NCBI GenBank assembly: GCA_020351745.1
Contig: CP070665.1
Span: 1,180,129-1,207,809 of the forward strand
Length of the DNA stretch: 27,681 nucleotides
Source of the DNA: Candidatus Heimdallarchaeota archaeon
GTDB taxonomy: Archaea; Asgardarchaeota; Heimdallarchaeia; Hodarchaeales; Hodarchaeaceae
Reading direction: 5' to 3'
Made by a program: the position numbers and the translations under genes. The stretch's first letter is position 1. Each line of letters begins with the position of its first letter. The notes beneath the pieces were generated by a model. That model had not been told where the DNA came from. It searched no databases and saw only the letters and a program-made list of their open reading frames with translations. This document shows positions 2,908 through 19,491 of the stretch, in pieces.

Positions 2908-4290
2908 TCAGGGATAGTCAGGAAGAATTTCATATTCTGATAATATTGTGGCTTTCTTACCAATATCTCCGAGAGCTTGGGAATACTTATGTTGCGCTTG
3001 AGGTTCTCCATGGATTGCATAGACCATAGAGGGCGAGCAGTAACGAACCATCTGGATTAGGCCTTCTAATGAAGAATGACCTGAAAACTCAAATCTTTTG
3101 ACTTCTAGCGCTAGATGTATTTTAAATACTTCTCCAAATCCATTATCTAATAACAGGTTCTTTTCTCCAGAAATAATATCTGACCCAAGAGTCCCTTCAA
3201 CCTGATATCCAACGATATACAGGCCATTAAGAGGATTACGTCCTCCAAATCGAAGATAATCATAAACAGGACCTCCCTCAAGCATTCCAGAGGTTGTCAG
3301 AATTATGCTTGCCTTTTCCTGAGAAACCAATTTTTCACGTTTTTTTCCTCTCCTGCCTTTATATGAAACTTCATCTACTGTTTTAAGCCCATCATGTTCA
3401 AAAGGAGTTCTATAACCTCTTTCCTTTAACTCAATGAGAATACGTGGTGAAACCCACTTTTTGTTTAGATATTTTTGATAAACTGAATTCATGTCCAAAA
3501 TCATTCCATCAATATAAAGGGGAAACTTATGAAGAAAAGAATCAAAATCGCTTGTTAAGTACGCTTGAATTTCCTGGCTTCTTCCTAATGCAAATGAGGG
3601 AATGATTGCTTTTCCGCCTCGTGAATAGCACTTTAACAATGATTTTGTTAAATCTGATGTAGCCATTTTCCTGTTACTGCTTATTTTTCGATTTGCATTC
3701 GTTGTTTCAGTTAATAACACATCAATAGGGTCATCAGGATCGGGATAAACCATTGGATCATGATAAGGAGTTTTGGCATCATTGAAGTCCCCTGTATATA
3801 AAATTCGTGTCCCTTCCCAATCAATAAGGATAGCTGCGCTTCCTAAAATGTGGCTAGCATCAATAAATTCAGCAGAAATTCCAGGTGCGATCCGAAATCT
3901 TCGATGATACTCATATGTCTTACTTTTAGCGAGAGCTGAATGTATATGAGAAATCCCATAATGATGTGGACCCTCAATTTTCAAATGATCTTTCCAGAGT
4001 ATATCCACGATCTCTTTTGTAGGTGAGGTCATAAGTACTTGACCTTGGTATCCAGCCCGATAAAGAGCTGGAACATAAGCAGAATGATCAATGTGGGCAT
4101 GAGAAAGTAAAACAGACAAGATTTCCTCGCAAAATTTATCCACCCCTTCAGGAGGTGTTGAAAGCAGGCCACTCCTCCTAGGATGGAGCTGGATGCCAGC
4201 ATCTAAGAGGATACGACGATCACCATCAGAAATCATAACACACGACTTTCCCACAGAATCAGAAGCACCGAATACCATTATTTCTAACAT
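2908..4290 (-). CDS. metallo-beta-lactamase / beta-CASP ribonuclease (aRNase J / aCPSF2-like)
   Basis: MBL motifs are present: ILLDAG, HAHIDHSAYVP (HxHxDH), DASHILGSA and YTGDFN. Beta-CASP motifs are present: LLTETTNA (A), FSGHSS (B) and AIHGEP (C). The 460-aa length and lack of KH domains argue against aCPSF1. Confidence 0.8.
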   Translation of the reverse strand: MLEIMVFGASDSVGKSCVMISDGDRRILLDAGIQLHPRRSGLLSTPPEGVDKFCEEILSVLLSHAHIDHSAYVPALYRAGYQGQVLMTSPTKEIVDILWKDHLKIEGPHHYGISHIHSALAKSKTYEYHRRFRIAPGISAEFIDASHILGSAAILIDWEGTRILYTGDFNDAKTPYHDPMVYPDPDDPIDVLLTETTNANRKISSNRKMATSDLTKSLLKCYSRGGKAIIPSFALGRSQEIQAYLTSDFDSFLHKFPLYIDGMILDMNSVYQKYLNKKWVSPRILIELKERGYRTPFEHDGLKTVDEVSYKGRRGKKREKLVSQEKASIILTTSGMLEGGPVYDYLRFGGRNPLNGLYIVGYQVEGTLGSDIISGEKNLLLDNGFGEVFKIHLALEVKRFEFSGHSSLEGLIQMVRYCSPSMVYAIHGEPQAQHKYSQALGDIGKKATILSEYEILPDYP

Positions 4291-5424: not shown

Positions 5425-5498
5425 GGGCCGGTGGTCTAGCTCGGTATGACGCGTCCCTCACACGGACGAGGACACTAGTTCAAATCTGGTCCGGCCCA
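5425..5498 (+). tRNA. tRNA-Val (anticodon CAC), no encoded CCA
   Basis: A hand-folded cloverleaf works throughout. Acceptor stem GGGCCGG/CCGGCCC with discriminator A; D arm GTCT-AGCTCGGTA-TGAC. Anticodon stem CGTCC/GGACG with loop CTCACAC; variable loop AGGAC. T arm ACTAG-TTCAAAT-CTGGT. An A/T-rich TATA-like run lies about 20 nt upstream. Confidence 0.9.
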
Positions 5499-5677: not shown

Positions 5678-7885
5678 TTATGAGTCAAACGCTTCCAAAA
5701 TGTAAGAATAGATATCCTTTTCTTTACCTTTCGATACTTGTTGTAATCTTCTAACGATCAATTCTGGAGTTGATTTGGCGTATTTATAGTATATTGGAGT
5801 TCTATTCACTATTAGTTCTAGATCTTCTGACAGTCCATGTGCTTCAATCCCATCGATCCGTAGCTTTTCTTTACTATATTTGGCTATTAATTGTGCTAGG
5901 TGAGTCACAAATACTCCAACAGAATCTGAAGATCGGCCTAACAAATCTAAGAATGCTGCTATTACCCGGGCTGATGCACCTGGTTCTGACATACTCTCCA
6001 TTTCGTCAGCTAATACCAATCTTGAATGTGGGCTCATTATCATTTGCGATAATGTCTGTAATGTGGTTTCAAAAGCGCCCGCATCCATCTGTCCAGAGGC
6101 CTTGCGATAGTAGTGTAACTCTTTGAAACCCCCAATAGATCCTTTTTTACATGGAATGGGAAGACCCATTTGCCCAAGAATTACCATCACTGCGATAGAA
6201 ACAATTAATGTTGTTTTTCCTCCACTATTAGCCCCTGACAAAAGAATAATTCTTTCCCCATTGACACTACCAGCAATCTTACCAAGTTCTCCTATTGCAT
6301 AAGATACAGGTTCAACATGTAAGACTCCCCGCTGTTCTTGCTGGATTAAAAACAAGTTTCGACCATCTTCCACGAGTAATCCTGTACCCTGTCCCTCAAC
6401 AAGTCGTGGTAAAACCAAATTATACGAAAGAGTAAACTTTCCAATCATTAAATGGTAATCCAATTCTAACATATAGTTTAACGCCGATTTAGCTATATCC
6501 TCAAATTGTTTTAGGGATTTAGCTAGTGTTACTTTTAGTTCAAAAGACTTAATCGCTCGTCTTTGGCGTAAATAATTTTTAATCCGATTTACTACCTCGT
6601 CAACTGGATCAACAGGATACCTCAATTCTCTTGGAAAAATACCGACAAGGAAGTCAATTTCATCGCTTTTCAAATCTAATCTTTTTATGAGTTTTTCTTC
6701 TGCTCTTGTGATTATTTCTTCAACTGCTAAATACAACTCATCATCAAGGTACTCACGAAGTTCTGCTTTCCCAGTGTCTCCTGAGTATCTACGATCCTCT
6801 TCGGTTATCCCTTTGAGAAGAGCAAGGATCTTTTCTCCTTCTAAGTGAACAGTTGTATCCTGAAGCTTTTTTTCTAGTTCTTCATTTAATCCAATCAAAA
6901 CTTCACTTAATTTGTTTTCAAAGGTTTGTTCCGCCCTTAAAAGACGTGAATACTCCTCGTTAAACTTTTGTGTTGGTTCACCTGATTCTTCTAGATTTAC
7001 GAGCTCATTCCCCATTTTTATAAGCATTTCAAGGTTGATTTCGCCAAGAAGCGCAGTTAATTCCAACGAAGGGAGTGTTTGAAGTAATTGAGCCATTCTA
7101 GAAATTGATTCAAGGGCTATTTTATTCCGAGCAAAGAAACCAAGTATTTTTTCTGGGATAATCTGAATTAAATCATTACGCTGACTCTCTGAAATTGTGA
7201 TTGTATTAGACAGCTCTTCTTCAATCAATATATCTGAACCAATCCAAATAACTTCATCATAACCTCCAATGATTTCTGAAACCTGTTCAGATTCTTCGAT
7301 TAAGAGGATTTCACAATGATTCCCAACTTCATTAGCTGTTAGCTCTTCATAAATCTCCCTATCAGCAGTTGCAATGATTCGCGATGCTGTATCTAGTTGG
7401 TTAACCTGTTCTTTAAGAGGTGAGAGATTTCTGAGCAATATGTCGTAATCTTTGAAAGAATAAGGAGAAGCTTGTATTAAAGTGACCAATTTTTGTGCCC
7501 GATGGGTAGTTTCTTGCCTCTCCCGAATTTTTTCCAAAGCTGTAATTGGTAAAGGAAAAAACAAGTATAATTTTGATCTGGAGTAAATGGTATTGGCAAA
7601 TTTTGAAATAATATCTGTTGTTCGGTTGTAAAGTAAAATAGCGTCTTCTGTCTTAAGAAAATTCTGTATCCGTTCACCAGTCTCCTGAAAATGAAGGTTA
7701 CGACATAAACTTAAGGCAAACCGCTCACCAATTCCCTCGATAGAGGATATTTCTGCTATTCTGGATTCACGTAATGCCGTGAGAGCAGCCATTTCGCCCC
7801 CAAAATATACTTTCAGTTTTTCTTCAACTGAAGGGCCAATTCCACGTATTTCTCGAAGATTTATTACACTCAAAGTAGGTTCCAT
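5678..7885 (-). CDS. MutS-related ABC-type ATPase (MutS domain V only) with N-terminal helix-hairpin-helix motifs
   Basis: The C-terminal region has the MutS-type P-loop LLSGANSGGKTTLIVSIA, then GAFETTLQ, Walker B VLADEMESMSEPG and FVTHL. The N-terminus carries HhH-like LREIRGIGPSVEEKL and IEGIGERFA. A long helical middle region is present, and no mismatch-recognition or Smr domain was recognised. Confidence 0.75.
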   Translation of the reverse strand: MEPTLSVINLREIRGIGPSVEEKLKVYFGGEMAALTALRESRIAEISSIEGIGERFALSLCRNLHFQETGERIQNFLKTEDAILLYNRTTDIISKFANTIYSRSKLYLFFPLPITALEKIRERQETTHRAQKLVTLIQASPYSFKDYDILLRNLSPLKEQVNQLDTASRIIATADREIYEELTANEVGNHCEILLIEESEQVSEIIGGYDEVIWIGSDILIEEELSNTITISESQRNDLIQIIPEKILGFFARNKIALESISRMAQLLQTLPSLELTALLGEINLEMLIKMGNELVNLEESGEPTQKFNEEYSRLLRAEQTFENKLSEVLIGLNEELEKKLQDTTVHLEGEKILALLKGITEEDRRYSGDTGKAELREYLDDELYLAVEEIITRAEEKLIKRLDLKSDEIDFLVGIFPRELRYPVDPVDEVVNRIKNYLRQRRAIKSFELKVTLAKSLKQFEDIAKSALNYMLELDYHLMIGKFTLSYNLVLPRLVEGQGTGLLVEDGRNLFLIQQEQRGVLHVEPVSYAIGELGKIAGSVNGERIILLSGANSGGKTTLIVSIAVMVILGQMGLPIPCKKGSIGGFKELHYYRKASGQMDAGAFETTLQTLSQMIMSPHSRLVLADEMESMSEPGASARVIAAFLDLLGRSSDSVGVFVTHLAQLIAKYSKEKLRIDGIEAHGLSEDLELIVNRTPIYYKYAKSTPELIVRRLQQVSKGKEKDIYSYILEAFDS

Positions 7886-7946
7886 TCATATTTGATAGTT
7901 AATTTGAGAGAGTTTTGAATTACCTTTATGCCTTTTTTCTGAGTCT

Positions 7947-8858
7947 TTAGATTTTTGTGATTCTTTCTGCTGTGACTAGCTCAATGAATTTATGAACCTC
8001 TGAATATGAACAATGATCAGAATAAGGAAAAAAGTGCACATCTAAACGTTTTTTACGTAAGCGTGCGGACCAACCGGTAGGAGAGATTCGCAATGCATCT
8101 GACATTTTAGCTTGATTTTGCTTTTTAATTCCATACAATCCCTCTACCATTCTACGACTTCCAACAAACACTCCTGAATCTGTATCATTAGTGAAAATAT
8201 CCCATTCTCCTCCAATTTCTTTGTAGACTCGAACCTTCTGATCTAAAGCCCAAATCTTTATTTTCAACGCTTCGCTAATTGTCTTAAGTAACAGTTCTTT
8301 CCCTATCTGATAAGCAGAGATCCACACATCTCTTTCTGGATAGTTTTCATCCTGTAGGATTAATGAGATAATTTGTGAAATTAATACTTCCCTTGATGGA
8401 AATTGAAAAATTGGGTCTTTTCCATAAGTATAGTCAACCCAGAGATGATTAGCTCCTTTAATCAAACTAAGTTCATCAAGAATTGGTGATCCTAGCCTAA
8501 AATCACCTGTATACACCTCTTTTAATCCTTCTTTTGATTCGATGACATAAATTATACTACCCAGACAATGATTGGCATCCAATGCGTGAACAATAAATTT
8601 ATCGAAGTCTAAGGATTGATTAGGTTTAATTACAAGGCATTTTTCTTGGGGGATACCATAAAGTACCCTTATGACGGCTTCTGTTTCCTTAGAACAAACT
8701 ATCGTAGCATCAGGATCAGTTAAACTTGATTTGAGACCAGATGTATGGTCAGAGTGAGCGTGGGACAAGAAAAAATATCCTGAAGAAGGTTTCCGACGAG
8801 CGCGACGACGAAATGGGAATTCATCGAAATAACTTTGAGCAATCGTTGAAAATACCAT
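7947..8858 (-). CDS. SNM1/PSO2/Artemis-type metallo-beta-lactamase (DRMBL) nuclease
   Basis: YFFLSHAHSDHTSGL is the HxHxDH motif in the SNM1-like context F..D.F...fLtHfHsDH..GL. LDANHCLGS and YTGDFR are present. The C-terminus FPYSDHCSYSEVHKFIELV resembles the SNM1 VPYSEHSSY.E...F motif. GGAGGT lies 8 nt upstream of the ATG. The gene sits 61 nt upstream of the MutS-like gene on the same strand. Confidence 0.75.
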   Translation of the reverse strand: MVFSTIAQSYFDEFPFRRRARRKPSSGYFFLSHAHSDHTSGLKSSLTDPDATIVCSKETEAVIRVLYGIPQEKCLVIKPNQSLDFDKFIVHALDANHCLGSIIYVIESKEGLKEVYTGDFRLGSPILDELSLIKGANHLWVDYTYGKDPIFQFPSREVLISQIISLILQDENYPERDVWISAYQIGKELLLKTISEALKIKIWALDQKVRVYKEIGGEWDIFTNDTDSGVFVGSRRMVEGLYGIKKQNQAKMSDALRISPTGWSARLRKKRLDVHFFPYSDHCSYSEVHKFIELVTAERITKI

Positions 8859-9111
8859 TTAATACCTCCATTCAGGTATAAAGCCACATAAACTAAGTAG
8901 GATTCAACTTCACCAAATTTGGGGAGTAGATCCTTTTCCTTAATTACTACAAGAGCTGAAATCGATCTTGAAATATCCATTATTGTGATAAGGATCAGAA
9001 GTACTTCATTTTTAATATCAATAAAACATTAATGTTTTCATGTATTGAAATCAAGATGTGAGGGGAGAGAATTAATAAGGATGGGAGCATAACTCAATGA
9101 ACATAAATCAG

Positions 9112-9117
9112 AAAAAA
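9112..9117 (-). terminator. T6 run downstream of the 5S unit
   Basis: The minus strand reads ...GGCGCCAUAUCUAC-UUUUUU-CUG directly after the 3' arm of the processing helix, consistent with archaeal oligo-T termination. Confidence 0.5.
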
Positions 9118-9126
9118 GTAGATATG

Positions 9127-9301
9127 GCGCCTAATGATAAGGAGGCTCTGTTTCCGGGTTCGGAATGAGACCGGGTGTAACTCAGGCCCTTTGACCGAGC
9201 AATACTCAGCTTTTCGATGTTCCCGTTGGCTCGCGCACAACAGTACAGATCGAAACGGAACCTAACTTAACTTCCGGCAGAGTCTCGCAGGTTATTGGCG
9301 C
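9127..9301 (-). promoter_or_regulatory. flanking processing helix with relaxed bulge-helix-bulge motif enclosing the permuted 5S
   Basis: The 5' flank (9301-9278, GCGCCAAUAACCUGCGAGACUCUG) pairs with the 3' flank (9150-9127, CAGAGCCUCCUUAUCAUUAGGCGC). The paired blocks are GCGCC/GGCGC, AAU/AUU, GAG/CUC and CUCUG/CAGAG. Next come a 3-nt AAA bulge (9153-9151), a 4-bp CCGG/CCGG helix (9277-9274 with 9157-9154), an AA(G) bulge (9273-9271) and GUU/AAC. Confidence 0.6.
9152..9271 (-). rRNA. 5S rRNA, circularly permuted gene order (3' half encoded before 5' half)
   Basis: Read on the minus strand, 9271-9211 gives GUUAAG-UUAGGUUCC-GUUUCGAUCUGUACUGUUGUGCGCGAGCCAACGGGAACAUCGAAA, which covers the helix II 3' strand, helix V, loop E, helix IV and a GCGA tetraloop. 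Next comes GCUGAG-UAUUG-CUCGGU (9210-9194), where helix I is closed as a hairpin. Then 9193-9152 gives CAAAG-GGGCCUGA-GUUACACCCGGUCUCAUUCCGAACCCGGAA, covering loop A, the helix II 5' strand and helix III/loop C. Hand-pairing supports helices I, II, IV and V. The blocks ACACCCGGUCUCAUUCCGAACCCGGAA and GUACUG..GUGCGCGAGCC..GGGAA match archaeal 5S sequences recalled from memory. The total length is 120 nt. Confidence 0.8.
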
Positions 9302-9351
9302 ACTACAGTTGTAGTCGCGGCTACAAACCGAAAGGAGCGCATTCAAGAGCC

Positions 9352-9360
9352 TTTAAATAT
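9352..9360 (-). promoter_or_regulatory. TATA-like box upstream of the 5S transcription unit
   Basis: The minus strand reads ATATTTAAA. This is about 50 nt upstream of the processing helix and predicts a start site near 9330-9340. No experimental support. Confidence 0.4.
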
Positions 9361-9385
9361 TCACCGTTAACCAGAGATTCTTAGA

Positions 9386-10198
9386 ATGAATTGGTCAGAG
9401 TGGAAGAAAAACTACTATCAGATAATTGGGCAGTTAGGTTTCGATATTGAGGCTGATGAACAATCAGCAGAACTATTAGAAACATATCTAGTCAAATTAA
9501 ATCCTGCTAAAAAATATCAAGTCCTCCAAAAATTAAAAACAATACTTCAAAAGCCAGTGATTATTGCAGGAGCTGGCCCCTCATTAAAAAGAGACTTTTC
9601 AGCTATCTTTTCAGGTCTTTATTCAAGCATGGTTATATCAGACTTTCATACGATCGCTGTTGATGGTGCAACAACATTATTCAATCAAAAAAATGTTATT
9701 CCATCTATAGTGGTCACCGATCTTGATGGTGATTTAACTGCCATCAGTTGGGCCATTGAAAAAGGCGCTTTGACATTAATTCATGCCCATGGTGATAATC
9801 AACAACGGATTTCTTGGTTTCTTAATGAATATCAAGAAGTCATTGCTAGAAACAATGTATGGGGAACTACTCAGTGTGAACCAGGACAAGTCCTTTTCAA
9901 TTTTGGGGGGTTTACTGACGGTGATCGTGCGATTTTTATGGCATTTCATTTTCAATCCCCTCTAATCGGATTAATTGGTTTTGATTTTGGTACCCAAATC
10001 GGTGAATATAGCACACTAAACTCCCCCATTAAGAAAACACAAGTAAAAAAACTCAAAAAATTCCGAATTGCCTTAAACTTAATAGCTACTTTTCATTCCC
10101 AACATAAGGGACTTCGTTACAATTTAACTTACCAAGGACAGCAAATTTCAGGATTTCCAAAAGCTACTATAACTAGCTTTCTAAGGAATTGGTTCTAA
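9386..10198 (+). CDS. mptE: 6-hydroxymethyl-7,8-dihydropterin diphosphokinase, MptE-like (DUF115)
   Basis: Motifs match the archaeal MptE/DUF115 pattern as I recall it: W..Y..I...GFD...D at the N-terminus, IIAGAGPSL, VDGAT, VVTDLDGD, HAHGDN, FGGFTDGDRA and GFDFG. Its 3' end overlaps the convergent PTPS-like gene by 26 nt. Confidence 0.75.
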   Translation: MNWSEWKKNYYQIIGQLGFDIEADEQSAELLETYLVKLNPAKKYQVLQKLKTILQKPVIIAGAGPSLKRDFSAIFSGLYSSMVISDFHTIAVDGATTLFNQKNVIPSIVVTDLDGDLTAISWAIEKGALTLIHAHGDNQQRISWFLNEYQEVIARNNVWGTTQCEPGQVLFNFGGFTDGDRAIFMAFHFQSPLIGLIGFDFGTQIGEYSTLNSPIKKTQVKKLKKFRIALNLIATFHSQHKGLRYNLTYQGQQISGFPKATITSFLRNWF

Positions 10199-10697
10199 TA
10201 GTATAATCAGCGCGATAATAGGATTTTTCCCAAATTGTAACCTTAAGAGCTTGGATCCTTTCCCAAAAAGTTTCCTTTTTCAAGTAAATTTGAATTTTCT
10301 CCCCTAATAATCTTGCTAATGTTTCTGCAGTGACATTAGTGCAATCTAAGAGTTTTATTTCTGCTTTAGGAATGGAATATAATCGTTTCCCATAAACAAT
10401 TTCCAGGTTATCCTTGTTTTCATGGATTTTCATATTTTTGTTCTTTGAAGGAAGCAACACAAAATGATCCCACTCTGTGAGGACTTCTGAAAGCATATTT
10501 TCAAGAAAGACAAAGTCAACAATCATGTCATGAATGTCCATGCTTCCTTCGACCTCTATTCCAACTAGATAGTTATGACCATGAAGGCCTTCTTCGTAAT
10601 GATCGGAAACTAAAATGTGTGCAGCACTAAAATGTGCAGAGATTCTATCGATAGCAACGGAACTTGAGATGTGTTTCTGGTTCAATACATAAATCAA
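10173..10697 (-). CDS. 6-pyruvoyl-tetrahydropterin synthase family protein (PTPS/QueD fold, Glu in place of the catalytic Cys)
   Basis: FSAAH...EEGLHGHNY supplies the three Zn-binding His of COG0720 enzymes. The position 4 residues before HGH, which is Cys in QueD and PTPS-II, is Glu here. The start lies 6 nt after the trxB stop on the same strand. Confidence 0.75.
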   Translation of the reverse strand: MIYVLNQKHISSSVAIDRISAHFSAAHILVSDHYEEGLHGHNYLVGIEVEGSMDIHDMIVDFVFLENMLSEVLTEWDHFVLLPSKNKNMKIHENKDNLEIVYGKRLYSIPKAEIKLLDCTNVTAETLARLLGEKIQIYLKKETFWERIQALKVTIWEKSYYRADYTIRTNSLES

Positions 10698-10703
10698 CCG
10701 TTA

Positions 10704-11666
10704 CTAAGCTTCTTCGCCATACCAGTCCCCACCCCTCATATCTAGGAAGGCAGAGATTGCAGCAGTTGTACCCTCACCAACAGCAACCGAGATTTGCCCT
10801 TGTCCTGGAGTAATGTCGCCACAGGCATAGATCCGGGGAATGTTCGTACGTTGCTTTTCATCAACTTTGATTAATCCCTCATCTGTCAAATTAATGCCAA
10901 TTTTCTTTGCTAATTCGTTATTGGGGAGAATTCCAATAGAAATAAAAACTGCCTTTACTCGAAGATCGCTTTCTTCTCCTGTCTTTACGTTTTTTAAAGA
11001 GATTTTTTTAACTCCACCTGCTTCGCTTCCGTGTATTTCTGTAACGATAGAGTCCCAAATCATATTAACCTTTGAATTATCAAGGATTTCCCTTTGAAGT
11101 GATTCCTCTGCACGTAATCGGTCACGACGATGAATCATATAGACCTCACGAACAACATTATCGAGATAAAGAGCTTCTGTGACAGCAGAGTTTCCACCTC
11201 CCACTACTGCTACTTTTCTAGCTTTGTATAGAGGGCCATCACATGTCGCACAATAAGATACCCCTTTAGCTTCAAATTCCTTTTCACCTGGAATATTTAA
11301 ATGACGATGAGAGGTACCAGTTGCTATAACGATAGCTTTTGCTTTAAAATTACCCGTAGTTGTCGTAACCACTAGTGGAACTTGATCAGTTCTGATATCT
11401 GTTACCTCCACTAATTCTCGAACCTCTGCTCCAAATTTTTCTGCCTGTTTTCGCAATTTCTCTGCGAACTCAAGACCAGAAATTTCAGAAAAACCAGGAT
11501 AATTCTCTATAATTGGAGTGACTGCTGCCAAGCCTCCTACTGCCTCTTTTTCAAGTACTATTGTTTTCCAACCCATACGTGAACCATAAATAGCAGCAGC
11601 CATTCCTGCTGGCCCAGCACCAACTATAATCATATCATACTCGTTGTTATCAGGGGTACTTTCCAT
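10704..11666 (-). CDS. trxB: thioredoxin-disulfide reductase
   Basis: It has the FAD motif [14 protein letters not shown], the redox-active CATCDG, the NADPH motif [15 protein letters not shown] with HRRDRLRA, and the C-terminal ACGDI. The 320-aa length is typical of low-Mr TrxR. Confidence 0.9.
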
Positions 11667-14712: not shown

Positions 14713-17361
14713 CTATCCAGGAGAGAAAACATCGTCTATAGTTTCTATATCGCCTTTAAAAATTTCAAGATCTCCTAACCATGTTGGAAGAGTCTTAGCA
14801 TATTTTTCCTCAAAATTTGTTAGAAACTCGTTAAGCTTTTTACGCAATTCAGAGGATGTACTATCCGCAAAAATAGCGGCAAAAACCCACTTTGCATATT
14901 CAATAGTTAGAACCACGTCACCGTGATCTATAGTTTTTAATAGCTGTTCACTTCGTACCGCTTCTTTTGCAAAAGAAGTAATAGCAGAGAATAGACCGGC
15001 TACTAGTGCTGGTTCGACTAGTGACTCCGCTGCAAAAGTGTGTGATAGAACAGCACGTCCATCAAGCATCATAATATGGAGTGAGTCAATCGTTACTTCT
15101 TCAAAAGAGTATGAAAATTCTCTATGCAATATTGTAAGTATTTGATTGAATGGAACTTCAATATCAAAAGTTAATTCGTCTAGAATTCGATGAATCTCAG
15201 CTGGTGTCAATCCACTTTTTGTTGGTAATTCATCAAAATGCTCTATTTTTCCAGTAATCGCCTCCCGGAGTTGCTGACCATTCTCGATTGATAACCAGGC
15301 TTCATCCATCCTCTGTTTTAATTCAGGATCATCAATATACGTTGCTCCAACCAGAATCATATCCGATTTGCTTGTCAATTCGCCTAAACTAGGGAGTCTT
15401 CCCATATCAGAAAAAATCGACTTGTGCTGGATTTTTTCTTCTCCCTCTTTACCACTTTTCTCTGTTCTGACATGAAATTTCCGCTTAACTAAAAACAAAA
15501 TAGCGCCATAGGTCATTATTATCGCAAAAGGATGCAAAAGATTATAGGGAATGGATAGAAGCCCGAGGAAGGTTCCTCCCTGACCTTTCCAGATCACAGA
15601 AATCTGACGTAATTCTGGGATAATAAACAGTACATCATTAAAGGCACCTTCTTTCCAGCTTGTTGTATACCATTTCAACCTTTCCTCTCCCCCAGCAAGA
15701 CCAGCTGTGAGAGTGTTAAATGGAGGTATTAAAGGAAAACCGCCAAGAACAAAAATCGCATTTCTTAAGCCTAAGAATTGATATAGGCCATTATAATACA
15801 CGCCATCATAATACAAGACTGCATCATACCACAAGAATATCAAAAAACTAACAGAAACTATTGATAAATATGTAACTAATGTAGTTACAAATACACTCCA
15901 ATTCCATCTTCTAATAAATAAAATAAATGCAGCACACAAGAAAAAGCTAGCATAATTCAAAGTAAACCAGAAGAATGTCTCATATTGAACAGTATCAATA
16001 TGTCGGGGATATAAACCTTTGAGAATATTGTAATAAACAAGAAAACCAACAGCTAGTAATAAACCAATAATTACCCCCATTGCGCCTGATTTTGCAATAT
16101 TAGCTATATTAACTCGTTTAAATGCCATTTTGAGATTTTTGAATGTTTCAATGAACTTGATGAACAAGTAAATTGAAAAAGGTTCGAAAATATCTAGAAA
16201 GAGCACAAAAAATACTGAAACCATTATGAAATATACCACGAAATAGGAAACCACAAAGATTTGATCGGTATACTCGAATAAGAAGAGAATAACAGCGAGA
16301 CCTGACGTAAATAAACCTACAGTTGATAAGCTCTGAACCATTGCAACGTAAAGCTGATTACCTAAGAATTTACCCTTTCTTGACAAGCGACTTGCTTTAA
16401 TAAGGTAAACACTAAATACAATTGAAGCAACATAAGCAAAAAAGATCTCCAGAAAGTGTCCCATGGCAGTTCCTTGCAATAAACTCGGGTTTTCAGTTTC
16501 CCCGAGCAAGCGTAAGATCGTCATAAGAAGAAATAGCGTGATAGGAAGGATTGCGATGAGTACTTTCAATAATTCCCTTTCATTCCCCCACTCCTTTTCT
16601 TTCACCCGTTTTGTTATTTCTTGAAAAGGTGAAACCTCCATTTCAAATTGAATCTCTTGTAATCGTTGAGTAACACTACGTATTTCTGTTAATTGTTGTT
16701 TTAAGTTAATAATGTCTTTTTCTAATGTGTTAATTTCACGGGTAATCTCCGAAATCTCATCTTCACTGGCAAACTTTTGTTTATTCTGAAGAATCTTAAT
16801 TTCCTCTACATTCTGCCTTAATAATCGCCTGAGTGGTTTTCTTTCATTTTGTCGCTCACCCCAAGTCTGGTACAATAATATTGCCATCGAAATGATAGGA
16901 GAAATGCCAAATACAAACGCTAAAATTATGATTGGATAATATAAGTAATTAACAATTGAATTGACAAAATGTTGGAACATATACTTAACCAATAAAGGTA
17001 ATCCTGGTAAACCAATTGATGTTAAAATGGAATTTATTGTTTCTTCGTCAACAGCAGCCGAATCCCAAGTGGTACTATAGGTTCCCTCCCATCCTTCTGT
17101 TCCTGAGACAGGATAATACTCCTGATCCATATATTGAGTAGGATTTGGTACAAAAGAGTTCAAGATACTGGGGAAGATGAAATATGCCAAATAAAAAACA
17201 ATAAAGCCAATAAAAGCGCGATTAAAAATGATCGCAAGAATATTTTCATCCTTTCGCCGTGTGTAGAGATAAGGTAAGAATAAAATTATTATGGGGGAAA
17301 AAGTGAGGAGTAAAGAGGTAAAAAGATTAATGGGGACCATTAATGAGTCTATCGATACCAT
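14713..17361 (-). CDS. large polytopic membrane protein with an internal coiled-coil loop and a C-terminal cytoplasmic longin/roadblock-like domain
   Basis: It has more than 12 hydrophobic helices. A charged coiled-coil insert is present (EEIKILQNKQKFASEDEISEITREINTLEKDIINLKQQLTEIRSVTQRLQEIQ). The soluble ~230-aa C-terminus ends in HIMMLDGRAVLSHTF...EPALVAGLFSAITSFAKEAV...AAIFADS...LNEFLTNFEEKY. No named family was recognised. Confidence 0.7.
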   Translation of the reverse strand: MVSIDSLMVPINLFTSLLLTFSPIIILFLPYLYTRRKDENILAIIFNRAFIGFIVFYLAYFIFPSILNSFVPNPTQYMDQEYYPVSGTEGWEGTYSTTWDSAAVDEETINSILTSIGLPGLPLLVKYMFQHFVNSIVNYLYYPIIILAFVFGISPIISMAILLYQTWGERQNERKPLRRLLRQNVEEIKILQNKQKFASEDEISEITREINTLEKDIINLKQQLTEIRSVTQRLQEIQFEMEVSPFQEITKRVKEKEWGNERELLKVLIAILPITLFLLMTILRLLGETENPSLLQGTAMGHFLEIFFAYVASIVFSVYLIKASRLSRKGKFLGNQLYVAMVQSLSTVGLFTSGLAVILFLFEYTDQIFVVSYFVVYFIMVSVFFVLFLDIFEPFSIYLFIKFIETFKNLKMAFKRVNIANIAKSGAMGVIIGLLLAVGFLVYYNILKGLYPRHIDTVQYETFFWFTLNYASFFLCAAFILFIRRWNWSVFVTTLVTYLSIVSVSFLIFLWYDAVLYYDGVYYNGLYQFLGLRNAIFVLGGFPLIPPFNTLTAGLAGGEERLKWYTTSWKEGAFNDVLFIIPELRQISVIWKGQGGTFLGLLSIPYNLLHPFAIIMTYGAILFLVKRKFHVRTEKSGKEGEEKIQHKSIFSDMGRLPSLGELTSKSDMILVGATYIDDPELKQRMDEAWLSIENGQQLREAITGKIEHFDELPTKSGLTPAEIHRILDELTFDIEVPFNQILTILHREFSYSFEEVTIDSLHIMMLDGRAVLSHTFAAESLVEPALVAGLFSAITSFAKEAVRSEQLLKTIDHGDVVLTIEYAKWVFAAIFADSTSSELRKKLNEFLTNFEEKYAKTLPTWLGDLEIFKGDIETIDDVFSPG

Positions 17362-17667: not shown

Positions 17668-19491
17668 TTAGTGGCGTCGTTTGCGGGTTAATGCATACAA
17701 TGGAGGAAGTATTATTAAAACAGAGAGAATCTCGAATCCTGGGACACCATCTTCGCTACTACTTGGGGGAGGGCCTTCAGTCTCTTCTGTTGTTGTCGTC
17801 GTCTCGGGAGGTTGGGCAGCCAATGCTGCTATAGCTGAATATGTAGGATCGTGAATGATTTCTCCACCATGCCACTCTGGAAATTCAGTCCCTATAAAGT
17901 AAAGCGTATCACTAAGTAAATCTTCGACACTGGTTGCTATATCTGTTAGTTGTAGCGATAATTGTGTTGCCATCCACTCTGTGAATAGATACGACATACC
18001 AAGTTCAACTATAAAGTATTCTTCAGCAACACCTTCAGTATCCCAGTTAGACCAGTCATTATGATCTAAAACTCGTATTACAACATCACGATCAACATCT
18101 GGGTTGATGTCGGGCCAGATATCATCTAATCCTTGCAGCTTGTAGGTGTCTTTGTCAGTAAATGCAGTAAAGAAGTAAGTGTTACCACCTGTGTAGATCC
18201 CAACTTGATTGTCAGCTTCATCTGTAGTATCGTTGAATCCTGCATCTATCTCCTCTGCTCCAAAGGTGTTCGTTGCAGTCGCTACTGTTAAACCAAAGCC
18301 GTCTGCCTCTTTCATTCGTCTTTTTGCGTCATCACCCACATAACATGCTAGTTCAGGTAAAGTAATTGTGATTTCTGCCGATAATGTAATATCAATACCA
18401 TAAGCGGAGAGGTCTAATCCTTGTACTTCTAAAGGAACGTCGAAGGTATATGAAGGCTGGGCTAGGAAGCCGTTAATACCAGTAGGAATCGTAGTCTCAT
18501 TTACTATTAGAAAGTTAGTTTCTCCAATGTAGTAGTGAGATGTCACGGTTCCTTCAACGTATGTGTTGGCACCAGTAAATTCTTGTGTTTCGAACTCATA
18601 TACATATGCGAGATAATCTAGTACAGAGGCAGCAACAATATCCTGGCCAAAAATGATGCCTCCAGTATCAAGGTCTTCCATTCCAAGAATATCTATCCCG
18701 TTTGGCACTGCATCGATCTTTTGCCAGAGTACCAACATATTGGTGTAGTTCATACCAAACATAAACCCATCGTCTGTTTCATCGAAAATCGGTGAGTAGC
18801 CAAAGTTTCCGACCTCATATTCAGTTTTTCCATCTAAGGCATTATTTATGCCTTCAATTAATTCCTGTATACTGAATGTATAGCCTAAATAGAGATCATC
18901 CTCTGTATCCAGTTTGGCAGGATCTGATCCTGTACCCATCCTATAGGCTATCAGCGCCATAAAGTTGTTGGTAACAAAAGTATCTTGTGAACCCATGTAA
19001 GCAGGGGTTGTATAATGCTGTACTAGCTGTTGAAAGGGAGCAGTGGCATTTACGTGGAAAATAGTTTTATCTAACGCGGGCTTCAAATCGATAAGTGGCT
19101 GCAACAGATCATATGCCTCTAAATAGCCTTCTATGGTTGGATGTAACAGATCACGGAATGTGAGTTCATGTTCGAATTTTTCTAACGCAGAATACGCGGT
19201 TTCAATCCCTGTATCATTCATGTAAGCTAGATAAAACTGCAGATCTTCTAACTCATTTCTGTCACCAATATCAGCATCTGGATCTAATAGATCTCTAATT
19301 AAATCAGGATCATCTGGTTGTGGGTCATAGATATCTTTTCCATCACCAACAAGATCCAGTTCAATCGCAAAATGGTCTTCACTGAAGTCAGGTCCGGCCC
19401 ACTCTGTTGGTGAAGCCTGAGCTGGGACTGTGAAAATCAGAACCATTATCAGCATTATTCCTGAAATTCCTAAATAAATTTTCTTTTTCAT
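17668..19491 (-). CDS. secreted surface protein with PGF-CTERM archaeosortase-type sorting signal
   Basis: The N-terminal signal peptide is MKKKIYLGISGIMLIMVLIFTVPAQA. A Thr/Ser/Pro linker (PPETTTTTEETEGPPPSSSEDG) is followed by VPGFEILSVLIILPPLYALTRKRRH, i.e. PGF, a TM helix and a basic tail. AGGTGAT lies 8 nt upstream of the ATG. Confidence 0.8.
   Translation of the reverse strand: MKKKIYLGISGIMLIMVLIFTVPAQASPTEWAGPDFSEDHFAIELDLVGDGKDIYDPQPDDPDLIRDLLDPDADIGDRNELEDLQFYLAYMNDTGIETAYSALEKFEHELTFRDLLHPTIEGYLEAYDLLQPLIDLKPALDKTIFHVNATAPFQQLVQHYTTPAYMGSQDTFVTNNFMALIAYRMGTGSDPAKLDTEDDLYLGYTFSIQELIEGINNALDGKTEYEVGNFGYSPIFDETDDGFMFGMNYTNMLVLWQKIDAVPNGIDILGMEDLDTGGIIFGQDIVAASVLDYLAYVYEFETQEFTGANTYVEGTVTSHYYIGETNFLIVNETTIPTGINGFLAQPSYTFDVPLEVQGLDLSAYGIDITLSAEITITLPELACYVGDDAKRRMKEADGFGLTVATATNTFGAEEIDAGFNDTTDEADNQVGIYTGGNTYFFTAFTDKDTYKLQGLDDIWPDINPDVDRDVVIRVLDHNDWSNWDTEGVAEEYFIVELGMSYLFTEWMATQLSLQLTDIATSVEDLLSDTLYFIGTEFPEWHGGEIIHDPTYSAIAALAAQPPETTTTTEETEGPPPSSSEDGVPGFEILSVLIILPPLYALTRKRRH

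Follow-up and report, generated by a model that had tools for sequence, protein, structure and literature searches.

How can a gene for 5S ribosomal RNA (rRNA), regarded as the easiest rRNA gene to find, be present on an archaeal chromosome and escape the models that are meant to detect it? The question is raised by a short element on the minus strand (positions 9152 to 9271) of a 27,681-nucleotide (nt) stretch of DNA, hereafter called the window, from contig CP070665.1 of Candidatus Heimdallarchaeota archaeon (assembly GCA_020351745.1, positions 1,180,129 to 1,207,809 of the forward strand). The organism belongs to the Hodarchaeales-type Asgard archaea, which are among the closest known archaeal relatives of eukaryotes. 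A preceding interpretation of the letters and open reading frames (ORFs) of this DNA, referred to here as the sequence-only reading, had described the element as a circularly permuted 5S rRNA gene, in which the 3' half of the molecule is encoded ahead of the 5' half, enclosed by a processing helix with a bulge-helix-bulge (BHB) motif, the substrate of the archaeal splicing endonuclease EndA. Here we report a computational analysis of this locus and its relatives. We conclude that it is almost certainly a functional 5S rRNA gene in permuted form, and we assign a probability of roughly 0.8 to the proposal that its product is matured by BHB cleavage and ligation.

Identification of a permuted 5S rRNA gene

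At the Rfam gathering score no 5S rRNA was found anywhere in the window, where a tRNA-Val (5425-5498) was the sole Rfam match. In a permissive scan, the 5S rRNA model RF00001, whose gathering cut-off is 38 bits, gave a forced full-length match of 21.4 bits in which only model positions 1-55 were truly aligned. When the region was cut to permit truncated alignment, a procedure that leaves pairs between the halves uncredited, the 5' half alone (9150-9204) matched model positions 1-53 with 26.8 bits (E 2e-4), and the 3' half alone (9203-9273) matched model positions 50-114 with 18.3 bits. The sequence-only reading had predicted such partial, mis-ordered matches in the native order, and had warned that the gene could be reported as missing by standard 5S models. 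Both predictions were borne out: as encoded, neither the window nor any of the permuted loci tested from related genomes reached the gathering score, while three ordinary colinear 5S genes taken as positive controls (L005, L017, and L019) scored 71-94 bits. Standard tools report no 5S rRNA here because the gene order is permuted.

Restoring the order in silico gave a different result. The minimum free energy (MFE) fold of the rotated sequence (9199..9152 followed by 9271..9205) is the canonical three-way-junction 5S structure, and the element contains covarying helices I-V, loop A, loop C (CCGAAC), and loop E (GUAC...GGGAA) within ~120 nt. For a reciprocal search of ordinary 5S loci we used a model, R1, made from 11 homologues rotated in silico (alignment A3) and the canonical 5S structure. 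Its best match was the colinear 5S of a nanohaloarchaeon (L005), which was recovered at full length with 70 bits (E 6e-16), and a bacterial 5S (L017) was matched with 34 bits. Because R1 matches a canonical 5S over its full length, the rotated molecule is a genuine 5S rRNA, as had been anticipated for the rotated sequence; taken together, the half scores and the reciprocal matches place it in RF00001 once its order is restored.

All motifs and coordinates of the sequence-only reading were checked against the sequence, both by reading 9450-9000 of the minus strand and by re-extraction with a script, and the underlying observation is confirmed. The hexamer CCGGAA stands at both new ends (9277-9272 and 9157-9152), a closed hairpin (9194-9210) occupies the position at which a normal 5S rRNA has its free ends, and the TATA-like box, the T6 run, and the length of 120 nt are all as described. 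The flanks 9301-9278 and 9150-9127 do pair in four blocks, of 5, 4, 3, and 5 base pairs (bp); these add up to 17 bp with one A·C mismatch, where 16 bp had been claimed. The description of the element as the only strongly GC-rich island outside the tRNAs was overstated, since its 175-nt region has the highest G+C content for that length in the window (0.53, against a window mean of 0.36) yet several coding stretches reach 0.50.

Conservation of the permuted arrangement in related genomes

The species genomes of GTDB were searched with a pattern (GGAAGTTAAG, 85-115 nt, and CCGAACCCGGAA) that fits the permuted order alone. Of the eight loci returned, six have the same arrangement, under labels such as Hodarchaeota, Heimdallarchaeota, Promethearchaeota or similar, and one of these six is on the closed chromosome CP070760.1. 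A second pattern with both junctions free, applied to JGI metagenomes, added four distinct loci and one duplicate (L015, identical to L003), and syntenic contigs reached via the neighbouring DRMBL gene added nine further distinct permuted loci, among them the closed chromosome CP070695.1 (L031); L023 duplicates L022. Pattern matches at L001 (Victivallales), L011-L014, and L016 were judged to be due to chance. The permuted arrangement is present in 19 distinct loci besides the window, 20 loci in total. The covariation counts given below refer to 19 distinct aligned sequences (alignment A5), to which L031, found with R1, is additional.

The window and a Hodarchaeota metagenome-assembled genome (L003) are 88% identical in DNA sequence over 8 kb and have in common the gene order TrxR-like, PTPS, MptE-like, 5S rRNA, DRMBL metallo-beta-lactamase, and MutS-domain-V protein (window 5678-11666). 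This order is kept across the Hodarchaeales-type loci L002-L031, with small local exceptions in L024, L027, and L029, while DNA identity among the loci goes down to about 67%. Of the 62 protein clusters of the DRMBL family, almost all are labelled Hodarchaeales or Heimdall; protein identity within the family runs from 61 to 95% and then falls to 33%, and the family seems to be confined to the Hodarchaeales-type clade. No 5S rRNA was found near the outgroup DRMBL homologue at 33% identity (L030), and an extension of the range through this outgroup was rejected for that reason.

All the aligned loci have an A/T-rich TATA-like box ~85 nt before the junction and, 30-45 nt after it, a T-run. A single box and a single T-run bracket the 3' part and the 5' part that follows it, which places both parts, within these presumed limits, in one transcription unit. 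The segment 9360-9112 of the minus strand is very probably a self-contained unit for a functional 5S rRNA, its ends being set by the predicted promoter and terminator.

Covariation of the mature and precursor folds

The folds were evaluated against shuffled alignments and against controls in which the structure was slid along the alignment. For the rotated mature 5S fold, 97.5% of the alignment cells are paired and 19 of the 38 pairs show compensatory changes, a level that none of 500 shuffles reached, and the slid controls are 25-50% paired. The precursor fold, which includes the processing stem and the BHB, has 95.2% of cells paired and compensatory changes at 24 of 46 pairs (0 of 500 shuffles; 26-51% in slid controls). 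Helices II, IV, and V covary in the rotated fold, and RNAalifold run without a given structure recovers the outer stem, the helix I hairpin, and helices II, IV, and V.

The elements specific to the permuted form are upheld as well. Five compensatory pairs fall within the 9 bp of the leader-trailer stem that adjoin the BHB, and four of the seven pairs of the closed helix I are compensatory. The helix I arms vary and stay complementary (GAGU/GCUC, GAGC/GCUC, GAAG/CUUC, GGGU/ACCC), while the loop that closes them has 3-6 nt and is freely variable (AUU within UAUUG, AAUUA, GUU, UUU, ACUU). The permuted order, the flanking helix, and the closed helix I, whose conservation in relatives had been named beforehand as a check, are thus retained in 19 distinct sequences with compensatory changes. 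A small hairpin in the leader, directly behind the presumed start of transcription, was followed by reading, without counts: its arms differ among relatives and are complementary still (GUUUGU/ACAAAC in L002 and L018; GUUUG/CAAAC in L009 and L020). It may guide folding of the processing stem or shield the 5' end.

The bulge-helix-bulge motif and its competing pairing

At the junction, the 5' strand of the BHB reads CUCUG-CCGG-AAG-UU and the 3' strand AAC-CCGG-AAA-CAGAG, each strand running 5' to 3' through a helix, 4 bp, a 3-nt bulge, and a second helix. This handedness is that of the canonical BHB of tRNA introns at position 37/38. The two bulges, each of 3 nt and on opposite strands, are separated by 4 bp and coincide with the mature ends of the 5S rRNA; the motif is relaxed in nine of the 19 sequences, and the MFE fold of the window does not contain it. 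The 3' bulge AAA is invariant (19/19), though its third A lies outside both the 5S rRNA and the stem. On paper, symmetric cleavage and ligation would restore the contiguous canonical loop C sequence and a length of 120 nt, as had been proposed; in nearly every locus, the ligated product is CCCGGAA-GUUAAG whether each bulge is cut behind its first or its second nucleotide. In L025, which has ACG as its 5' bulge, AA-GUUAAG is restored only if the cut follows the second nucleotide. That position is the register of EndA.

Several observations weigh against this assignment. The palindrome CCGG occurs three times in the window, in the leader and in the 5' and 3' strands of helix III, and ViennaRNA pairs the leader copy with the 5' strand of helix III with a probability of ~0.95, leaving ~0.003 for the BHB; a fold constrained to contain the BHB is 5.3 kcal/mol worse than the MFE. 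The same competing pairing is preferred in the other loci in which all three 4-mers are CCGG. The fourth pair of the central helix is A·C in 9/19 sequences, which makes the motif relaxed and non-canonical. The inner helix GUU/AAC is invariant, hence untestable by covariation, and is absent from the MFE folds of L025 and L029, the two divergent sequences on whose strength the BHB is favoured over the competing pairing.

These two sequences distinguish between the pairings as follows. In L025 the leader, the helix III 5' strand, and the 3' strand carry CUGG, CUGG, and CCAG, and in L029 they carry CCGA, CCGA, and UCGG, such that in both the leader 4-mer changes in step with the helix III 3' strand and remains complementary to it. 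Two of the four central-helix pairs are accordingly compensatory in the alignment (C-G to U-A and G-C to A-U). The ensemble probability of the central helix rises to 0.90 in L025 and 0.88 in L029, and the MFE folds of both contain the stem, the 3-nt AAA bulge, and the 4-bp helix. The pairing of the leader with the helix III 5' strand was rejected as the functional fold and retained as a caveat: it has no compensatory change, shows more breaks, and is impossible in L029. The claim of a relaxed BHB at the junction is upheld for the stem, the AAA bulge, and the CCGG/CCGG helix, which L025 and L029 back; GUU/AAC is not recovered in their folds, and the BHB is not the MFE structure of the window. 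The outer pairs of native helix III may serve as the inner helix in place of GUU/AAC. Overall, these comparisons support the interpretation of the element as a permuted gene with a predicted BHB at its ends.

Feature map of the locus

The coordinates of the promoter, precursor, and 5S rRNA elements are collected in Table 1.

Table 1. Predicted features of the permuted 5S rRNA locus, in window coordinates
Feature	Positions	Strand	Sequence or components	Remarks
TATA-like promoter box	9352..9360	-	ATATTTAAA	Read directly; ~85 nt upstream of the 5' cut site; predicted promoter function
5' leader of the precursor	9278..9333	-		From alignment A1; start placed near 9330 by the distance from the TATA-like box
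Leader hairpin	9326-9321 and 9314-9309	-	UUGUAG / CUACAA	Conserved; also given as GGUUUGUAG-loop-CUACAAC
Processing stem, 5' strand	9278..9301	-	GCGCC, AUAA, GAG-A-CUCUG	Pairs with 9150-9127
5' strand of the 4-bp BHB central helix	9274..9277	-	Leader CCGG	Pairs with 9157-9154
5' bulge	9271..9273	-	AAG	Read from the sequence; predicted cut 9272/9271
120-nt 5S rRNA in permuted order	9152..9271	-		Proposed excised, end-joined molecule
5S rRNA, 3' part	9204..9271	-	GUUAAG, helix II 3' strand, helix V, loop E GUACUG, helix IV with GCGA loop, helix I 3' strand
Helix I as a closed hairpin	9194..9210	-	GCUGAG-UAUUG-CUCGGU	7 bp; loop AUU at 9203-9201
5S rRNA, 5' part	9152..9200	-	Helix I 5' strand, loop A CAAA, helix II 5' strand, helix III, loop C, end ...CCGAACCCGGAA
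Helix III 3' strand, also 3' strand of the BHB central helix, and 3' bulge	9151..9157	-	CCGG 9157-9154; AAA 9153-9151	Predicted cut 9152/9151
Trailer, 3' strand of the processing stem	9127..9150	-	CAGAG-C-CUC, UUAU, GGCGC
T6 run	9112..9117	-		Read directly; likely archaeal transcription terminator

Farther from the element, the window contains a beta-CASP/RMMBL metallo-beta-lactamase RNase (aCPSF-like) at 2908-4290 (minus strand), ~5 kb from the 5S rRNA gene, and two ORFs on the minus strand without a Pfam match at E 1e-5 (14713-17361, 882 aa; 17668-19491, 607 aa). No EndA or RtcB gene was identified in the window among the larger ORFs scanned against Pfam (10 of 21).

Sequence variants and possible origin of the permuted gene

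Two of the related loci depart from the common form. The permuted 5S rRNA gene of L024 (2041-2256, minus strand, contig JBHLRO010000030.1 of GCA_048882505.1) is inverted relative to its neighbours and carries a 30-nt insertion, AGAUAUGAAGGAAUUUCUUCAUUCCGGGAA, within loop C, between CAUUCCGAA and CCCGG. The insertion folds as a relaxed BHB with a 4-bp helix UCCG/CGGG, bulges AAA and AAC, and an inner hairpin. If both bulges were cut behind their second nucleotide, CAUUCCGAA would be joined directly to CCCGG and the canonical loop C exactly restored. It looks like an intron inside the permuted 5S rRNA; we know of no archaeon with an intron in a 5S rRNA gene. In L007, a truncated second copy (3131-3275, plus strand, contig CAZALJ010000016.1) lies ~290 nt upstream of the intact permuted gene. 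This copy retains a TATA-like box, the leader, the 5' side of the BHB, and the 5S 3' part up to helix IV, after which unrelated sequence follows; its loop E is mutated from GUACUG to GUAUUG, and the intact copy has a different promoter-proximal sequence. A local duplication or rearrangement probably left this extra copy behind as a decaying relic.

With regard to the origin of the arrangement, R1 aligned positions 9333-9204 of the window at 'full length' with the leader as a pseudo-5' half. A leader that is the relic of a duplicated 5' half was rejected as an explanation: in all 11 loci compared, leaders aligned with 5' halves, and trailers with 3' halves, no better than shuffles did. The leader 4-mers of L025 and L029 are, moreover, complements and not copies of the helix III 3' strand. 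Since L024 has an intron-like insertion in loop C, an intron-bearing ancestor is suggested, and we speculate that the permuted gene arose from such an ancestor by a rearrangement within the intron, which would explain a leader complementary to an exon strand. As a speculation, an origin from a BHB intron and a rearrangement fits better than one from a duplicated 5' half.

Proposed maturation and alternative explanations

We propose that the locus would be transcribed into a ~220-nt precursor comprising the leader, the 5S 3' part, helix I closed by a 3-nt loop, the 5S 5' part, and the trailer. Leader and trailer would fold into a long stem whose inner end forms the BHB (CUCUG/CAGAG, the 4-bp CCGG/CCGG, and the bulges AAG and AAA). 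EndA would then cut after the second nucleotide of each bulge and free the molecule 9271..9152, with G9271 as its first nucleotide, and RtcB would link A9152 to G9271, thereby rebuilding the universal ...CCCGGAA-GUUAAG... segment of helix III. The product would be a covalently closed 120-nt 5S rRNA, which would most likely enter the ribosome as a circle.

That the circle is also the final ribosomal form is a narrower claim, which we hold with slightly better than even confidence. A circular intermediate could instead be re-opened in or near the helix I loop to give an ordinary linear 5S rRNA, in the manner of permuted tRNAs, and the evidence for the permuted gene and the BHB fits this course equally. 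The permuted tRNA genes of Cyanidioschyzon pass through a circular intermediate and their pieces end in the correct order (as cited in PMC4267664), and circular pre-16S and pre-23S rRNAs are generally thought to be re-linearised (PMC12918454). However, a helix I loop of just 3-6 freely variable nucleotides holds no second BHB and is too short for any recognisable processing element, tRNA-like or otherwise; in Thermoproteus, the permuted signal recognition particle (SRP) RNA remains circular (PMC4731332), and circular 23S rRNA has been reported within the ribosomes of some archaea (PMC12918454). Because this loop is variable and lacks a conserved processing signal, the circle is the most likely final form, and we consider re-opening unlikely. 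The ends might also never be joined, leaving a linear permuted 5S rRNA with a nick in helix III between A9152 and G9271 that is held together by pairing, for which helix II and the outer and inner parts of helix III could suffice. The brown-algal mitochondrial 5S rRNA, in which helix I is likewise a closed hairpin, is permuted in its final product too (PMC4267664); its break, however, lies in a junction loop, whereas the break considered here falls inside the most conserved part of the 5S rRNA. A whole-library Rfam scan (E up to 10) gave only RF00001 at the element and no match to the permuted mitochondrial 5S family, and cleavage of the BHB formed by the flanks would place a 2',3'-cyclic phosphate and a 5'-OH side by side, a natural substrate of RtcB by established knowledge of the pathway (PMC4731332). 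A permanently nicked molecule is in our judgement very improbable.

We give the least credence of all to a decaying or rearranged 5S pseudogene, or an assembly artefact, accompanied by a normal working gene elsewhere in the genome. The truncated and mutated copy beside the intact gene of L007 indicates that this locus does undergo rearrangement. An artefact of assembly is nevertheless excluded by the identical architecture of 20 independent loci from many assemblies and projects, and covariation that upholds the folds in 19 sequences speaks against both an artefact and a pseudogene. Compensatory changes in every helix, together with the conserved promoter box and terminator, point to purifying selection on a structured RNA that is presumably expressed, and no canonical 5S rRNA was found in the window or in any relative's fetched flank. 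Wu et al. reported that 5S rRNA was unpredictable in closed Heimdallarchaeum genomes 'using various approaches' (PMC8813620). This fits the finding of permuted genes; as a point on the other side, the report concerns a sister family and not the genomes analysed here.

Maturation by BHB cleavage and ligation remains our preferred reading. Extended to its full breadth, it describes Hodarchaeales-type Asgard archaea that would have no colinear 5S rRNA gene at all and whose ribosomes would contain a covalently circular 5S rRNA, produced from the permuted gene by tRNA-splicing endonuclease and ligase activities; at least one lineage, represented by L024, would also splice a BHB intron out of loop C; we regard the chances of this wider picture as about even.

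Implications

If this wider picture is true, it would be the first natural circular 5S rRNA and the first archaeal rRNA gene permuted at the DNA level, and would explain 5S genes reported missing from Heimdall-group genomes. A clade-wide reliance on the tRNA-splicing machinery for a ribosomal RNA would amount to an essential second job for that machinery, and such cells would constitute a natural experiment on whether the ribosome can use a 5S rRNA without free ends. The permuted order also provides a concrete cause for a 5S rRNA being scored as missing, and this bears on quality calls under the Minimum Information about a Metagenome-Assembled Genome (MIMAG) standard and on annotation pipelines; a covariance model of the permuted form would recover such genes. 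The case is directly checkable with existing Asgard enrichment cultures and metatranscriptomes.

Comparison with known systems

Archaeal 16S and 23S rRNAs resemble the 5S rRNA described here in having a long leader-trailer helix with a BHB, from which EndA excision and circularisation proceed (PMC7758197, PMC12918454). Their genes are colinear and ligation takes place outside or at the edge of the mature molecule, whereas here the gene itself is permuted and the junction would rebuild an internal conserved segment. Circular rRNA can stay in ribosomes, and the 23S rRNAs of Pyrococcus and Thermococcus are permuted post-transcriptionally (PMC7758197, PMC12918454). In Asgard archaea, circular 16S and 23S transcripts have been observed, and 5S rRNA is stated to take no part in the archaeal circularisation pathway (PMC12918454). 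Asgard archaea, including a Heimdallarchaeote, possess an (alpha-beta)2 EndA with an L1 loop, an enzyme type able to cleave relaxed BHBs (PMC5829648). Among the unusual prokaryotic 5S genes surveyed in PMC7812874 there is no permuted case, and no archaeal permuted or circular 5S rRNA is described in the searchable literature, outside of which most subscription journals lie, so that a prior description is possible.

The mitochondrial 5S rRNA of brown algae and other stramenopiles (Valach et al. 2014, NAR, PMC4267664) shares with the present gene a helix I closed as a hairpin, and the standard model likewise overlooks it or scores it too low. The two ends of the mitochondrial RNA are located at the alpha/gamma three-way junction, and it stays permuted and linear, with no BHB or ligation. 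In the Hodarchaeales-type 5S rRNA the break is in helix III beside loop C, and from the BHB on its two sides a rejoining of the ends is predicted; despite the closed helix I, the position of its ends in helix III sets it apart from the permuted organellar 5S rRNAs.

Permuted tRNA genes occur in some archaea too. Those of Cyanidioschyzon merolae (Soma et al. 2007, as described in PMC4267664) are similar to the 5S gene in that the 3' half is upstream and a BHB forms from the flanks, and the splicing machinery produces a circular tRNA intermediate. RNase P and tRNase Z recognise the body of the tRNA and re-open its circle at the acceptor stem; helix I of the 5S rRNA shows no comparable signal.

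The closest parallel is the permuted SRP RNA of Thermoproteus tenax and T. uzoniensis. In T. tenax, a leader-trailer BHB is cut by the recombinant (alpha-beta)2 EndA, junction reads are found, and the final form is circular (Plagens et al. 2015, eLife, PMC4731332). In both systems, an essential, universally conserved, and structured RNA has a canonical gene that seems to be missing, the 3' part precedes the 5' part in one transcript with a leader-trailer BHB at the junction, and the new ends adjoin a functionally important conserved loop. Cutting by the (alpha-beta)2 endonuclease, joining attributed to RtcB, and a circular product characterise the SRP RNA, and the same is proposed for the 5S rRNA. 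The two cases differ in that the RNA is here ribosomal and the hosts are Hodarchaeales-type Asgard archaea in place of Thermoproteales, and the SRP RNA is documented by RNA-seq junction reads, Northern blots, and in vitro cleavage, while the 5S rRNA is characterised here by computation. The class of mechanism is thus known from permuted tRNA and SRP RNA genes; what appears to be new is its use for a ribosomal RNA, in the clade of Asgard archaea closest to eukaryotes.

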